The position numbers were made by a program, and so were the translations under genes. From UHGV virus genome UHGV-0271890: 12,698 nt of DNA; one strand, written 5' to 3'. The first letter of the stretch is position 1, and the number at the start of each line of letters is the position of its first letter. This document shows, in pieces, positions 412 to 6,893 of this stretch. Source of the stretch: a virus. The notes under the pieces are model-generated. The model made no database searches, was not told the origin of the DNA, and was given only the letters and a program-made list of their open reading frames with translations.

Positions 412-487
412 TGGTAGAAGTGGAGGGATTCGAACCCATCGCCTGTCAGATTAAAAGTCTGCCGCATCACCATTCTGCTACACTTCC
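412..487 (-). tRNA. tRNA-Lys (anticodon UUU), non-canonical T-stem
   Basis: Acceptor GGAAGTG/CACTTCT (G1:U72), D-loop AATGGTGA, anticodon loop CTTTTAA on stem GCAGA/TCTGA, T-loop TTCGAAT flanked by only 3 GC pairs (ATGGG/CCCTC has two mismatches); CCA encoded. Confidence 0.65.
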
Positions 488-491
488 ATTA

Positions 492-635
492 AATTATCTT
501 TGTAGATAAGCTACCCAGACTTGCTTAAGGTCTGTAGCGATGTGCCTTTTTGGGTTTAAATCTAGAATTTACCCTTTCACCCTTTGTGGTCGCATACTCA
601 CAGGTAAGCTTAATAACTTATCTACAAAGATAATT
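492..635. repeat. 19-bp perfect inverted repeat enclosing 106 bp
   Basis: AATTATCTTTGTAGATAAG at 492-510 is the exact reverse complement of CTTATCTACAAAGATAATT at 617-635; each arm is also a local hairpin (TTATCT-NNNN-AGATAA). Confidence 0.8.
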
Positions 636-636
636 A

Positions 637-770
637 CCAGACCGTTGTTTATCATCTTAAGTGCTACCATTACACCAACTCGACATCTGCCGAGTGAAGG
701 AATCGAACCTTCGCCTTTTCTTTACCGAGAAATAGATTGTTTAAGTTTTGCTGTAAACGGTCTTCTGTAA
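637..770 (-). ncRNA. Candidate Y-RNA-like / permuted tRNA-mimic RNA
   Basis: Minus-strand order is T-arm GAAGG-TTCGATT-CCTTC (plus 696-712), then a closed 7-bp acceptor-like hairpin ACTCGGC-AGAT-GTCGAGT (plus 678-695), then a D-arm-like GTGT-AATGGTA-GCAC (plus 661-675). All sit inside an 8-bp long-range stem (plus 639-646 with 756-763). No canonical cloverleaf is possible. Confidence 0.45.
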
Positions 771-780
771 ATTTGTTGAG

Positions 781-856
781 CCAGACCAAGTTTTAAATTT
801 TTCAAAATTAAATTGGTTTGAAATTTTAAGTATCTTGCTGTATTTGGTCTTCTGCT
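781..856 (-). ncRNA. Stem-bounded structured element, family member
   Basis: Conserved CCAGACC...GGTCTTCTG flanks with 7-bp closing stem AGACCAA/TTGGTCT (783-789 with 844-850); conserved sense-strand 5' motif CAGAAGACC-NNNT-ACAGCAA; internal AT-rich hairpin. Confidence 0.4.
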
Positions 857-1183: not shown

Positions 1184-1250
1184 CCAGACCGTGTTTTTTT
1201 TTTTTCTTTTATCCGCAAAAAGTATTTTGTTGCTGAATACGGTCTTCTGC
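1184..1250 (-). ncRNA. Stem-bounded structured element, family member
   Basis: Closing stem AGACCGT/ACGGTCT (1186-1192 with 1239-1245) covaries with the other copies; contains a 13-nt homopolymer T-run (plus) and an internal hairpin. Confidence 0.4.
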
Positions 1251-1343: not shown

Positions 1344-1417
1344 CCAGACCAAATCTCTTCTTTGTCCGATTTACCTTCAGATGAATAAGATTAAGTTTGC
1401 TGTAATTGGTCTTCTGT
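1344..1417 (-). ncRNA. Stem-bounded structured element, family member
   Basis: Closing stem AGACCAA/TTGGTCT (1346-1352 with 1406-1412); same conserved flanks; abuts the CCA end of tRNA-Glu. Confidence 0.4.
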
Positions 1418-1611: not shown

Positions 1612-1641
1612 ACTTTAACATTATTTTTTAGTGATTGTCAA
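1612..1641 (-). promoter_or_regulatory. Candidate promoter for the tRNA array
   Basis: On the minus strand: TTGACA (plus 1636-1641), 18-nt spacer, TAAAGT (plus 1612-1617), about 25 nt upstream of the tRNA-Pro 5' end. Confidence 0.45.
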
Positions 1642-1710
1642 GAACTTTTTTAAAATATTTTTCAGTATCTTAGAAAAGCTCTCGTTTCGTTTCTATGTAG
1701 AACATATTAA

Positions 1711-1745
1711 AGGGTATCAAACACATTGTCAATACCCTTTTTGAA
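1711..1745. terminator. Hairpin terminator just downstream of the vWA gene stop
   Basis: AAGGGTAT...ATACCCTT 8-bp stem, followed on the plus strand by TTTTTGAAACTTTTT and preceded by an A-run on the minus strand; direction ambiguous, possibly bidirectional. Confidence 0.45.
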
Positions 1746-1750
1746 ACTTT

Positions 1751-3166
1751 TTACCAGATGTAACGGTCAATCATTACTGCTTTGAGCATTACGCTGATTG
1801 GGTCAAACTTCTCACCACCAAGCAGAGCTTTTAAAGTGGCTGGAGAGAAACCAGATACCATTGCTACACCGTTATCCTTAACAGATACTTCGCAAGTACC
1901 ACTACGGTTTGCTAAGTACCAGAATACCAGTTGTGGCATTTCGTATCCAGCTTTTTTGTACTTACTACGAATTGCTTCAAAGTTTGTACGACCGTTAGCT
2001 CCATCAACCTGATTGAACTCCATATCGGAGAAGATGATAAGCTTACTTGGCATATCTTTCTGAGTCAAGTTGTTTCTTTTACCTGTCTCAAGAATACGGT
2101 CAAAAGCAGCTTGTAAGTTAGTTGAGCCATATTCAACGTGTCGCATCACCTGACGATGACGGTTTCGTAAATCACCACTCAGTTCGATGAAGTGAGGGTT
2201 TGTTGAATAAACCATCAACTCATTCTTAAAGCAACCTGTATTACGTTCTGCTACATACAATGCAAGTGAAACACCAATATCAAGAGCAGTAATTGAACCA
2301 AAATTCACCCAAGACATTGAGCTTGAAACATCAGACATACACAAGATGTTTTCACCCTCTGCCATCCAGTTTGGTAGTGCTTTCCACTGCTCATTAGCAA
2401 CATCTGCATTACCATGCTTAACAGATTTAATTACATCGTATGGGTAAACAGCACCAGCATTAATCTTAGTCTCACCCTTTGATAAGGACTCGATGTAAGC
2501 TTTGTAGCGTTCTCCATCTTTACGGTTAAACAGTTTTTGGTAACGTGCAGCAGCAAGTGAAGGAATCTTACTGTAGTCAATCTTACCAAACTCATTAGCA
2601 GAGATTTTTTGCTCAACTGTATCAGATAGTGCAGACAACAGTGTGCGGTACTCTTTCTCACTCAAGTTGGCAAACTTGCAGAAACGTTTTACAAACTGCT
2701 TATGACGTGGTTTGACTCGTGGTAACCACTTAGCTGCCAAACCTGCTGTTGCAGGGTCTAGTAATGCTGCTTCTAAATGTTTGAAGGCATCTGTCTCGAA
2801 ACGAGTACCTACGAAGATTTTGAAGTCATCAAAACGACCAAGTTCTGCAATCTTATCCATAATGCGAAGAACCTGTGTAGGCTCTAAAACTTTATCTTCA
2901 ATTGCTTGAAGCAAAACAGTTCTGAAGGCTTTACGCTCACCCATACCTTCTCGTACATCTCGCATGTGAAGCAAAATACGAACTGCAACATCAACATCCT
3001 CACGCAAAGCTTTGTAGAACAGGTCTGGTAAGATTTCTACATTGCTACGGCTCGAACCAGCAGATTTGTAAAAGTCTACAAGAGCAGACATTGATGAAGT
3101 ATGGTTTACAGCACCATTTTCAGTTCGACCTGCATGAAGGTGCGCATGTTTAAATAATTCGCTCAT
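1751..3166 (-). CDS. vWA (MIDAS) domain protein, 471 aa; possibly Ro60/TROVE-like or DUF2828-like
   Basis: Long ORF with RBS; MIDAS motif D-x-S-x-S (ILCMSDVSSSMS, ~nt 2300-2340) followed by predicted alpha/beta segments; N-terminal ~270 aa likely helical. Family assignment is from memory. Confidence 0.8.
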   Translation of the reverse strand: MSELFKHAHLHAGRTENGAVNHTSSMSALVDFYKSAGSSRSNVEILPDLFYKALREDVDVAVRILLHMRDVREGMGERKAFRTVLLQAIEDKVLEPTQVLRIMDKIAELGRFDDFKIFVGTRFETDAFKHLEAALLDPATAGLAAKWLPRVKPRHKQFVKRFCKFANLSEKEYRTLLSALSDTVEQKISANEFGKIDYSKIPSLAAARYQKLFNRKDGERYKAYIESLSKGETKINAGAVYPYDVIKSVKHGNADVANEQWKALPNWMAEGENILCMSDVSSSMSWVNFGSITALDIGVSLALYVAERNTGCFKNELMVYSTNPHFIELSGDLRNRHRQVMRHVEYGSTNLQAAFDRILETGKRNNLTQKDMPSKLIIFSDMEFNQVDGANGRTNFEAIRSKYKKAGYEMPQLVFWYLANRSGTCEVSVKDNGVAMVSGFSPATLKALLGGEKFDPISVMLKAVMIDRYIW

Positions 3167-3200
3167 ATTTTACTCTCTTCTCTCATTTTGTTTGTTGATG

Positions 3201-3236
3201 TGACAGACTTTAGAGCAACTTTGTAGAGTCTGTCAA
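3201..3236. promoter_or_regulatory. 9-bp perfect inverted repeat between the two minus-strand genes
   Basis: TGACAGACT ... AGTCTGTCA separated by 18 bp; candidate operator or attenuator hairpin. Confidence 0.35.
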
Positions 3237-3869: not shown

Positions 3870-4031
3870 ATGAGAAAATCAAATAAACCGAAGAAAGGTA
3901 AGAATACCAATCACTGTAAGGAATCAAAAAGGGTAGAATTAATCTACTATTCGTCCTCTGAAATTGGTCTGTACCTGTTCTTTCAAAATTACAGAAGACA
4001 AGAGGATTATCTATGTGTAGTTCCCAATTAG
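3870..4031 (+). CDS. Small lysine-rich hypothetical protein, 53 aa
   Basis: ATG at 3870 preceded by AAGGAG; the ORF-track start at 3849 is a TTG without RBS. Confidence 0.4.
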   Translation: MRKSNKPKKGKNTNHCKESKRVELIYYSSSEIGLYLFFQNYRRQEDYLCVVPN

Positions 4032-4246
4032 AAATCGCAGATATTATAGATTTATATCAAACTGCAAAGAGTCATGGCTATATAACCTCAATTGGAAAGA
4101 ATAGTCACTATGATGCTTTGACTGGAATGTATTTCAGGGCAATGGCTCAATCTAGTGAACAACACTTAATGGTTTCTTCCAGTGAGTTTACTTCGTTTCT
4201 CTATTGCAGCAAAATTATAAATCGCAGGAGAACTGAAAAATGTTAA
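4013..4246 (+). CDS. Hypothetical protein, 77 aa
   Basis: ATG preceded by AGAGGA; overlaps neighbours by a few codons. Confidence 0.45.
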   Translation: MCSSQLEIADIIDLYQTAKSHGYITSIGKNSHYDALTGMYFRAMAQSSEQHLMVSSSEFTSFLYCSKIINRRRTEKC

Positions 4247-4830
4247 CAGTAAGTTTTAATTACAATAGTGATGGCTCTGTATCAATTAATTCGCCATATG
4301 CAAATGACCTACTTAAAGAGCTAGTCAATCAGTGTGATAGAGGTCTTCACTATGTTCAAAATTCTTTTAAACAGAAGACTATTGCTAATAACTTGATGCG
4401 TGTAACAGTAACGGCATCGAATCCAAATTATGACTTTGATAGTGAAAGTCCGTACTCATTAGTTGCGCTTGGAGAGAGCAGCCAATTCAAACTTGTTTGC
4501 CACGACTCAGAAACATTCCTTAAGGTATTTTCCAACCTTATTCATAATAATAAGTACAGCTACGTCGATGGTAGTGTAAATTTCTATCCAGCAAACTATA
4601 CATGTTTGTTGGTTGATAATATGAGAAAAAGTAAGCAAGAGCCTACAGAAATTTCATTTGATGTAAACTCTAGCCCAGACGCAGAAACAAGTAAGAACTT
4701 TGATATGAGCTACGCATTGTCACTCAGTAAGAAATCCGAGTTCATTGATTATGTCAATGGATTTGGTTTTAAGTTTGATGAGAGTATGAATCTTAAAAAA
4801 CTTAAGAACCTACTTAAGACCAAAGCTTAA
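4240..4830 (+). CDS. Hypothetical protein, 196 aa
   Basis: ORF with AGGAG RBS; followed by hairpin terminator. Confidence 0.75.
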   Translation: MLTVSFNYNSDGSVSINSPYANDLLKELVNQCDRGLHYVQNSFKQKTIANNLMRVTVTASNPNYDFDSESPYSLVALGESSQFKLVCHDSETFLKVFSNLIHNNKYSYVDGSVNFYPANYTCLLVDNMRKSKQEPTEISFDVNSSPDAETSKNFDMSYALSLSKKSEFIDYVNGFGFKFDESMNLKKLKNLLKTKA

Positions 4831-4838
4831 GTGTGAAT

Positions 4839-4865
4839 AGGGGCTGATGCCCCTTTAACTATTTA
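4839..4865 (+). terminator. Rho-independent terminator-like hairpin
   Basis: AGGGGC-TGAT-GCCCCT stem-loop followed by a T-rich tract. Confidence 0.5.
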
Positions 4866-4877
4866 TAAGGATATTTA

Positions 4878-5249
4878 ATGAAAGCTAAGAGTGCAAAAGA
4901 CTTTTATTGCTTCCTACAATCCTATATCAATTCCGTGCAAAATGGTGAAAGGTACAACCTTAATGATGTTATCCCAACACCTTTGACATGGAGACTCAGC
5001 AAATGGCCTGAAGAAGATATTACACCAACAAGCGAACAGTGTACCTACAAACCTGAAATCAATATTCCAGATTCTGAGAACCTATTATACCCAATGTTCC
5101 ATATTGTTGGACTTGGAAGATTCCTTATGGATATCCAGTATGTAATTGGTAAAGGTTATAAGGTTAAAGGTATTGTTGTTGGTGATGTATCTCCGCATCA
5201 CAAAGGTTATTTTAGACTAAACGCACATTTAGAGGCTAAAAAGAAATGA
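4878..5249 (+). CDS. Hypothetical protein, 123 aa, paralog of the N-terminal domain of the next gene
   Basis: ORF with AAGGA RBS; shares a conserved block with the 5246..6379 product (FMDIQYVI vs FMDLQYAI, plus shared residues around W-P-E-x-D-I and Y-K-P). Confidence 0.75.
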   Translation: MKAKSAKDFYCFLQSYINSVQNGERYNLNDVIPTPLTWRLSKWPEEDITPTSEQCTYKPEINIPDSENLLYPMFHIVGLGRFLMDIQYVIGKGYKVKGIVVGDVSPHHKGYFRLNAHLEAKKK

Positions 5250-6379: not shown

Positions 6380-6843
6380 TGCAACTCTCAAGAAAAGGTT
6401 TAGACGCTATTAAGTTCTTCGAAGGTCTGAAGTTAGAGGCTTACGAAGACTCTGCCGGAATCCCAACAATCGGGTATGGGACAATCCGTATTGACGGAAA
6501 ACCTGTTAAGATGGGTATGAAAATTACTGCTGAACAAGCTGAACAGTATCTTCTCGCAGATGTTGAAAAGTTCGTTGCAGCAGTGAACAAAGCCATCAAG
6601 GTTCCAACTTCTCAGAATGAGTTCGATGCACTTGTAAGTGAAACATACAACATCGGTATCACAGCTATGCAGGATTCTACATTTATCAAGCGCCACAATG
6701 CTGGTAATAAGGTAGGTTGTGCAGAAGCTATGCAGTGGTGGAACAAGGTTACAGTCAAAGGTAAGAAGGTCACTTCAAACGGACTGAAAAACAGACGTAG
6801 AATGGAAGCTGACATTTATCTTGACAGTGTATATCCAAAGTAA
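6379..6843 (+). CDS. Lysozyme, glycoside hydrolase family 24 (T4/P22-type), probable endolysin
   Basis: N-terminal FEGLKLEAYEDSAGIPTIGYG has the E-x8-D-x5-T catalytic spacing of T4 lysozyme; overall resembles P22 gp19; TAATG start overlap. Confidence 0.92.
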   Translation: MQLSRKGLDAIKFFEGLKLEAYEDSAGIPTIGYGTIRIDGKPVKMGMKITAEQAEQYLLADVEKFVAAVNKAIKVPTSQNEFDALVSETYNIGITAMQDSTFIKRHNAGNKVGCAEAMQWWNKVTVKGKKVTSNGLKNRRRMEADIYLDSVYPK

Positions 6844-6853
6844 TATCTTCATA

Positions 6854-6880
6854 GGCTCCTTCGGGAGCCTTTTTATTTTC
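6854..6880 (+). terminator. Rho-independent terminator
   Basis: AGGCTCC-TTCG-GGAGCCT followed by TTTTTATTTT, immediately after the lysozyme stop. Confidence 0.75.
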
Positions 6881-6893
6881 TAAGGAGAAAACT

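Follow-up and report, generated by a model that had tools for sequence, protein, structure and literature searches.

A predicted stem-closed RNA element in the tRNA array of Felix O1-like phages, beside a Ro60-like gene

Relation to Y RNAs, RNase III stems and T4 RNAs

Species 1 and 2 of phage T4 are stable RNAs of unknown function that lie in a phage tRNA cluster and are cut from the same precursor. Two other described systems come close to the locus that we report here. One is the RNase III stem of rRNA operons, of T7 (R1.1 type) and of T4, where a helix of about two turns flanks a functional RNA within a tRNA-bearing polycistronic precursor. The other is the Y RNA, represented in bacteria and phages by Salmonella YrlA/YrlB, Deinococcus Yrn1 and Yrl1/2 of Thermus phage phiLo. 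Y RNAs and YrlA (Rfam RF02553; Chen et al. 2014) are recognised by a gene on the same strand as a Ro60 orthologue and no more than a few kb from it, by a stem in which the two ends of the RNA pair, by a GNCGAAN0-1G motif (or a bulged CGAA) close to the 5' end and by a tRNA-like domain, and the phage phiLo study defined its Yrl RNAs by a stem flanking a bulge with CGAA. For Felix O1-like phages, the literature that we searched does not identify the RNA components of the Ro60 system and held nothing usable on transcriptomes.

We analysed a window of 12,698 nt from the UHGV virus genome UHGV-0271890, which comes from a Felix O1-type phage. An initial annotation had pointed to a 19-bp perfect inverted repeat enclosing 106 bp in its tRNA region. 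Here we describe this repeat as the closing helix, P1, of an element of about 145 nt that contains several hairpins (P2 to P4 in Table 1). We are highly confident that the element is a minus-strand RNA with a defined structure and that it is not mobile. As such it is a new, unannotated RNA in a phage Ro60/Y-RNA locus, which is itself a known kind of system. In the four annotated regions that we opened at the locus no feature is listed over the element, and other records place short hypothetical ORFs there.

The likeness to Y RNAs lies in the position of the element about 1.1 kb downstream of a Ro60-fold gene on the same, minus strand, in the pairing of its 5' and 3' ends in a long, covarying stem that closes a multi-loop, and in its being one of several small RNAs of the locus, of which the neighbour at 637-767 has the YrlA order. 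There are also clear differences. The minus strand of 488-640 contains no CGAA, and a tRNA-like domain is present in the neighbour but not in the element. The protein belongs to the DUF2828/DUF7788 branch and not to Pfam TROVE. In place of CGAA there is a candidate binding signature that consists of a stem and then NNNNNGCAA, typically YUACAGCAA, and in the element it lies within an internal hairpin instead of the terminal stem. That stem forms a near-perfect helix of 24 bp and lacks the bulge that Y RNAs typically have, and a tRNA array surrounds all of these RNAs. Compared with the RNase III stems, the element has a similar two-turn helix in a similar precursor, but it encloses only about 100 nt, the outer half of its helix is conserved in sequence within Ounavirinae, and its cleavage is a prediction. 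Like species 1 and 2 of T4 it is small and structured, is not a tRNA and lies within a phage tRNA cluster, but it has no detectable sequence relation to them and is linked to a Ro60-like gene.

Table 1. Features of the window and related sites in other phages
Feature	Position	Strand	Remarks
tRNA-Lys(UUU)	412..487	-	5' end 4 nt past P1
P1 3' strand	492..515	-	holds arm 492-510; followed by UAAU (491-488), then tRNA-Lys
P4 hairpin CAGAC-CUUAAGCAA-GUCUG	516..534	-	abuts P1 3' strand; stem covaries
P3 hairpin GGGUAAAUUCUAGAUUUAAACCC	552..574	-	tip GAUUCUAGAUU sequence-conserved
P2 region	577..607	-	box GAGUAUGC at 599-592, RRGUAKGC in most lineages examined; read from sequences
P1 5' strand (RNA sense)	612..635	-	holds arm 617-635; MFE fold, covariation
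YrlA-like RNA a	637..767	-	ends 1 nt before P1; consensus fold
Y-like RNA b (CAGAAGACC-N5-CAGCAA ... GGUCUGG)	781..854	-	sequence signature
Y-like RNA c	1184..1249	-	same signature, between tRNA genes
Y-like RNA d	1344..1416	-	same signature, between tRNA genes
Two TTGACA-type promoter-like sites	1612..1732	-	ahead of tRNA-Pro; consensus scan only
Ro60-like gene, 471 aa, DUF2828 + DUF7788/vWA	1751..3166	-	upstream of RNA array; Pfam
Module copies, Aeromonas phage 4_4572			eight in tandem, upstream of gene
Module copy, Vibrio phage nt-1			one, abutting gene
Module copies, Mycobacterium phage LilDestine			three, downstream; one tRNA-like
Module copies, uncultured phage group L036	1772-2054, 3528-3741		3-4 copies
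Module copies, uncultured phage group L037	3680-3896		3-4 copies
Module sites, L045 (one of the named phages above)	3991-4956, 525-575		
Module site, L046 (one of the named phages above)	4965-5005		
Module site, L052 (one of the named phages above)	3940-4210		
tRNA-Leu helix, L001	~436-530	-	
tRNA-Leu helix, L024	8282-8372		
tRNA-Leu helix, L030	8314-8384		
tRNA-Leu helix, L042	7925-8012		

The inverted repeat as a covarying helix of the minus-strand RNA

The arm AATTATCTTTGTAGATAAG occupies positions 492-510 and its exact reverse complement positions 617-635, and the repeat grows to 22 nt if one mismatch is allowed (492-513/614-635). With gaps of up to 300 nt, no longer perfect inverted repeat exists in the window. 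The longest such repeat in each of 200 dinucleotide-preserving shuffles of the window measured 10-14 bp, and the observed 19 bp lie beyond all of them. Read as minus-strand RNA, the repeat becomes a 24-bp helix that includes three G·U pairs (612-635 with 492-515), whereas the opposite strand gives 18 bp. When 488-640 is folded as minus-strand RNA, P1 closes the internal hairpins and the minimum free energy is -48.3 kcal/mol with a z-score of -5.9, and none of 200 shuffles was equally stable. It had also been suggested that each arm is self-complementary and that local and long-range pairing would compete. The local hairpins are real in the Felix O1 type (6 bp each, -3.4 and -3.0 kcal/mol), but next to an arm-arm duplex of -22.5 kcal/mol such competition is energetically negligible. 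Nor is it conserved, with arm self-pairing of 0 to -0.5 kcal/mol in lineages L003, L005, L041 and L042 and -2.7/-1.6 kcal/mol in L048. The self-complementarity of the arms is lineage-specific and incidental.

Escherichia phage phiWec172 matches this region of the window with 100% identity, and Salmonella phage Felix O1 does so for the inverted-repeat element itself. The surrounding 400 nt have matches in 253 phage records, 246 of which cover at least 80%, and a BLAST search of the element against 50,697 phage records returned Felix O1-like phages only. When the gap between tRNA-Lys and tRNA-Asp is aligned, the element occupies the corresponding site in Felixounavirus, Suspvirus and Mooglevirus. 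Two sequence types occur whose arms differ and yet stay complementary, UGUAGAUAAG/CUUAUCUACA in one corresponding to UGCAG-UAGC/GGUUA-CUGCA in the other, while the outer 10-11 bp of the arms are sequence-conserved within Ounavirinae.

The covariation in the helices is drawn from a limited number of independent lineages. Across 12 distinct sequences 99.4% of the cells in P1 and P4 pair, compared with 29-43% when the partners are slid, and 10 of the 27 pairs have changed on both sides. For the 22 pairs of P1 the corresponding values are 99.2% paired and double compensatory changes at eight positions. The observed percentage paired, the double-change counts and the covariation score were matched by none of 500 shuffles. 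The pairing is also of the RNA type. Two of the three single-base changes in the arms of the Felix O1 type yield G·U, and in most lineages P1 has at least 22-24 pairs on the tRNA strand, one to four of them G·U, against 14-18 pairs and zero G·U on the opposite strand (L042 and L043 are exceptions). The helix of the opposite strand is shorter because a G·U pair becomes C·A there. Covariation on the tRNA-coding strand thus gives strong support to the earlier proposal that the arms pair in the precursor transcript.

More distant relatives were found through the neighbouring protein (52-64% identity) and include Yersinia phage P778 (L041) and the metagenomic contigs L042-L044 and L047-L051. Directly 5' of their tRNA-Lys(UUU), the tRNA that follows the element in every lineage examined, lies an element 145-170 nt long. 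The arm sequences of these distant helices are unrelated to those of the window, with the pairing kept, and in most of these relatives a hairpin rests against the 3' strand of the helix, with a loop that starts with CYU and usually ends in GCAA. A covariance model built from Ounavirinae sequences missed the distant homologues with default filters and recovered only the P1 arms in L041 with the filters off. For this reason the distant lineages were compared fold by fold rather than in a single alignment; MAFFT alignments that included them placed L043 wrongly. The closing helix measures 20-26 bp in most lineages examined, which bears out the suggestion that it is long enough for an RNase III-type substrate. 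Such substrates are taken to need about 20 bp or more of continuous or near-continuous double-stranded RNA, a length that the helix of the window reaches, and most other lineages have 0-2 small symmetric mismatches.

Two natural deletions were seen at the locus. In L019 (6306-6545) the element is missing and the T arm of the YrlA-like RNA is fused to the T arm of tRNA-Lys, and because of this variant we conclude that the element is dispensable at least under some conditions. In phage ESCO49 (L008, 1088-1290) tRNA-Asp, Y-like RNA b and most of the YrlA-like RNA are gone and the element is kept. According to the PhageMaP data in a preprint on Bas63, most genes of the tRNA region of that phage scored as non-essential.

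Interior hairpins, neighbouring RNAs and the Ro60-like protein

The enclosed CAGAC...GTCTG hairpin of the initial annotation is present and corresponds to P4. Its stem takes the forms CAGACC/GGUCUG, CAAACC/GGUUUG, CAGUC/GACUG, CUGUUC/GAACGG, AAAGUC/GACUUU and AGAGAC/GUCUCU. The loop opens with CYU wherever P4 can be recognised, and its usual end is GCAA; in the most distant lineages the end drifts to GUAA (L048), ACAA (L050) and GCAC (L049), and L051 is without a clear P4. In Felix O1-like phages P4 consists of a CAGAC(C)/(G)GUCUG-G stem and a 9-nt loop ending in GCAA, with zero insert, and in our module scan zero-insert versions of the stem plus GCAA module were seen only as P4 of inverted-repeat elements. 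P4 is a minimal copy of the signature of its neighbours, an AGAC stem followed by 9 nt ending in GCAA. This link is firm only for the Felix O1-like phages and their close relatives, because the P4 loops of distant lineages drift. In P3, GGG/CCC of the Felix O1 type is replaced by AGC/GCU in type 2, where an outer stem also changes from AUUUCCU/AGGAAAU to GUCUCUU/AAGAGAU, and the tip GAUUCUAGAUU is invariant, a conservation that holds within Ounavirinae. The loop of P2, the least certain part of the fold, is closed by GUG/CAC in the window and by GGGG/CCCC in L042.

Searches for known families and signals in the element were negative. Comparison with Rfam at E-values up to 10, over 1-1800 and 480-870, gave zero families for the element, and ARAGORN together with the Rfam tRNA model found no tRNA cloverleaf over 488-636. 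A scan for intrinsic terminators inside the element found none; such terminators are short G+C-rich hairpins ahead of a U tract, and this helix spans an interior of 100 nt, with UAAU and a tRNA after it. A promoter consensus scan inside the element had no match. Hexamers resembling a -10 box sit immediately before tRNA-Lys with no -35 partner found, and we rejected an internal promoter at this place. A hammerhead-like core was likewise set aside, given that CUGUGAG...GAAA is only a partial match and Rfam gives no support, as was a role for P4 as a decoy of the anticodon arm of tRNA-Lys, given that its stems and the neighbouring tRNA-Lys do not change together (L041 against the window).

All nine tRNA genes of the window are on the minus strand, and the repeat sits in the 428-nt gap between tRNA-Lys(UUU) and tRNA-Asp (916-993). 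Next to it in this gap is RNA a. A closing stem AGACCGU/ACGGUCU leads in it to UUACAGCAA and then to V, T, closed acceptor-like and D arms, with a T arm of GAAGG-UUCGAUU-CCUUC and a 7-bp acceptor-like stem with three covarying pairs. The order V-T-AS-D is that described for YrlA and has the topology of a circularly permuted tRNA. Against Rfam YrlA, RNA a gave no match at E-values up to 10. The version in Citrobacter phage HP1 (L006) has an encoded GCCA after the acceptor 3' strand and, when un-permuted, is called a class II tRNA by ARAGORN; the G+CCA suggests that RNA a derives from tandem class II tRNA genes. We rejected the possibility that RNA a is a genuine circularly permuted tRNA gene whose product matures through circularisation, as the anticodon-side stem is lost in Suspvirus and Mooglevirus and the topology is that of YrlA. 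The pattern CAGAAGACC-N5-CAGCAA...GGUCUGG occurs four times in the tRNA array (RNAs a to d), with 0.01 occurrences expected by chance, and these neighbouring RNAs carry CAGAAG...CAGCAA and not the CGAA motif. The TTGACA-type sites ahead of tRNA-Pro are the likely start of a polycistronic transcript that would include the element.

Some other observations were made in and around the array. At 862-915 on the minus strand, directly after tRNA-Asp, there are two hairpins, GAGAGGGCUAUUUAGCCCCUC and CCUUAAAGGGUUCUUACGAGUAUCCUUUAAAGG, which are kept across three genera with a co-change of G/A to C/U. Between tRNA-Asp and tRNA-Tyr, phages phiWec172 (L001 2097-2525) and pSJ21 (L003 1601-2029) have an HNH homing-endonuclease gene, which the window does not have; its Asp (916-993) and Tyr (999-1086) genes are separated by 5 nt. 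In Yersinia phage P778 two tRNA-like sequences (~6510-6650 and ~6730-6890) have good acceptor, D and T arms and insertions of about 70 nt in the anticodon region, and are called by neither ARAGORN nor the GenBank record.

The product of the gene at 1751-3166, labelled 'RNA-binding protein' by PHROGs, folds like Ro60 according to its AlphaFold (AF2) model, which was built with 31 homologues and has a pLDDT of 87 and a pTM of 0.86. When this model was compared with the PDB, the 13 best matches were all Ro60/Rsr/TROVE structures aligned over the full length, among them Deinococcus Rsr, Xenopus and human Ro60 and the Ro60 of Thermus phage phiLo. Sequence and profile searches of the PDB with the protein did not find Ro60; only the fold comparison did. 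The DxSxS motif of the vWA domain is invariant among the homologues, which are found in 710 phage records and in over 2,500 metagenomic clusters and are annotated in mycobacteriophages as 'Ro-like RNA binding protein'. A preprint on phage Bas63 (Felixounavirus) describes the orthologue gp130 as Ro60-like, located upstream of tRNAs and counteracting the ppl defence system, and mentions, as speculation only, that some annotated tRNAs might be Y RNAs. Upstream of the gene, at 3200-3236 of the window, lies a plus-strand hairpin, CAGACU-UUAGAGCAA-...-AGUCUG, which overlaps a minus-strand TTGACA/TAAAGT promoter-like site.

Homologous Ro60-like genes in distant phages have the same kind of module beside them, in which a closing stem precedes about 9 nt with (CA)GCAA at their end (Table 1). 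The stem usually starts with AGR and usually ends with YCU followed by G. The tRNA-like copy of phage LilDestine has a weak Rfam YrlA match of 21.7 bits, below the threshold. Because the same module flanks homologous genes in phages this distant, the modules are likely to be partner RNAs of the DUF2828-branch Ro60-like proteins, and they look like an undescribed RNA family tied to these proteins. They are analogous to the stem and CGAA bulge by which the Yrl RNAs of phiLo were defined.

Proposed processing of the element, alternative readings and significance

Further along the same array, outside the window, a second helix of 24-29 bp stands directly 5' of tRNA-Leu(UAG). Its arms resemble those of P1 (UCUUUUUAGAG/CUCUAAAAAGA in the Felix type and UCUUUGUAGAU.../...AUCUACAAAGG in L042), it has the same UUUAAU tail ahead of the tRNA, and its interior is only about 40 nt. 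Because a long helix recurs in this way in front of a tRNA, the arrangement favours a role in processing. We also observed in this interior a conserved YUUGUUGCU, the complement of AGCAACAA in Y-like RNA c (CAGCAACAAAAU). In L009, L012 and L027 the site of this helix is filled up to the tRNA by what is, in an untranslated reading, an apparent coding sequence.

The explanation that we favour, and to which we give about an even chance as a whole, is that the repeat is P1 of a non-coding RNA of about 145 nt that is processed by RNases and displays P4 to the Ro60-like protein. The element would be transcribed together with the tRNAs and the Y-RNA-like RNAs, downstream of the Ro60 homologue, in one polycistronic precursor in which P1 joins its two ends. 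A cut by RNase P at tRNA-Lys would free the 3' side of the element, and host RNase III would probably cut the two-turn P1 as it cuts the stems that flank rRNAs. Cutting of P1 would divide the long precursor, and what is left would be a core closed by the stem and resistant to exonucleases, with P4 presented as a putative docking site. By analogy with those stems, RNase III cleavage of P1 is a reasonable prediction that falls slightly short of even, and binding of the Ro60-like protein through P4 is proposed more tentatively, on the likeness of the motifs. With P4 as a minimal version of the AGAC stem plus NNNNNGCAA module of its neighbours, the element would therefore be the fifth, composite member of the Ro60-associated RNA set of the phage.

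Other readings of the repeat have to be weighed against this one. As terminal inverted repeats of a small inserted element, which the initial annotation had offered as an alternative, the perfect 19-bp repeats around some 100 bp would have the look of a non-autonomous, MITE-like mobile element. However, there is one copy per genome (the second BLAST place in each record is the repeat matching itself), the flanks CCATTA and ACCAGA contain no target-site duplication, and the orthologous site is occupied in all three genera and in the distant relatives, with differing arm sequences. In the comparison with related phages that had been proposed as a check on the 106-bp insert, the arms diverge yet keep RNA-type pairing, with compensatory differences and with G·U pairs that break the symmetry of the DNA. 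A precise empty site was not found either, since the deletions we see are T-arm to T-arm recombination in L019 and a larger loss that keeps the element in ESCO49. The lack of target-site duplication, extra copies and precise empty sites leads us to reject this reading, which we consider extremely improbable. A signal at the DNA level, either a cruciform or a pair of sites bound by a dimeric protein that acts, for example, in replication, packaging or the control of transcription, would account for a perfect palindrome-like repeat with conserved outer base pairs. It is very unlikely, given that G·U is tolerated on the tRNA strand only, that the helix runs on through G·U beyond the perfect repeat, and that distant lineages keep the pairing and not the sequence, with no promoter-like site found. 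Still less credence goes to a coding function. The plus strand has a 76-aa ORF with an ATG start at 540-770, and ORFs of this sort may be behind the small hypothetical proteins that several GenBank records list at the locus, but no ORF of at least 30 aa is common to the lineages on either strand, and this one runs antisense to the structured RNA and to the YrlA-like tRNA mimic. It is probably a spurious call.

Two more readings accept the RNA and differ in what it does, and we regard each of them as unlikely. P1 could be all that matters, a signal for double-strand-specific cleavage (by RNase III or another enzyme) that divides the precursor of tRNAs and Y-like RNAs, with the 106 nt as a functionless spacer. 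The long helix and its place before a tRNA are indeed the most constant features across all lineages, the helix before tRNA-Leu has similar arms around a much smaller interior, and a length of 20-26 bp suits RNase III more than plain stability needs. There is also a precedent, as a review describes the participation of E. coli RNase III in the maturation of T4 tRNAs. A spacer without function does not fit with the constraint on the interior, where the position of P4, the CYU start of its loop and the RRGUAKGC box are conserved, as is GAUUCUAGAUU within Ounavirinae, and where the stems of P3 and P4 covary. Conversely, the element could be a stable RNA in which P1 stays uncleaved, protecting and insulating it and preventing mispairing with the tRNAs, and whose function is unrelated to the Ro60-like protein, for example one tied to tRNA-Lys. 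Its constant place beside tRNA-Lys(UUU), the departure of distant P4 loops from GCAA and the absence of the canonical Ro60 motif are in keeping with such a function. RNase III is established to cut long near-perfect RNA helices, however, and a near-perfect helix of 22-24 bp is an expected substrate in E. coli and Salmonella. Additionally, P4 of the Felix O1-like phages closely matches the closing stem and motif of the neighbouring RNAs, and its stems show no covariation with the anticodon stem of tRNA-Lys.

The Felix O1-like phages count among the classical phages for typing and therapy, and annotation of the tRNA region in their genomes has listed tRNAs and spurious small ORFs. The 428-bp gap between the Lys and Asp genes contains conserved RNA genes, namely the YrlA-like tRNA mimic, Y-like RNA b and the stem-closed element. 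These RNA candidates and their common signature make the Ro60-like, anti-defence system directly testable. As a more speculative extension, which we think improbable in full, phages with DUF2828-type Ro60 proteins from Escherichia, Salmonella, Aeromonas, Vibrio and Mycobacterium hosts may share an undescribed family of partner RNAs, defined by a stem AGR.../...YCU-G and about 9 nt ending in GCAA. The element of the Felix O1-like phages would then be a composite of a docking hairpin and a two-turn helix that tethers the Ro60-like protein to a double-strand-specific factor (e.g. RNase III) or serves as a decoy, in either case within the anti-defence activity reported for the protein. The findings suggest that Ro60-type ribonucleoproteins are far more widely spread in phages than TROVE annotation indicates.
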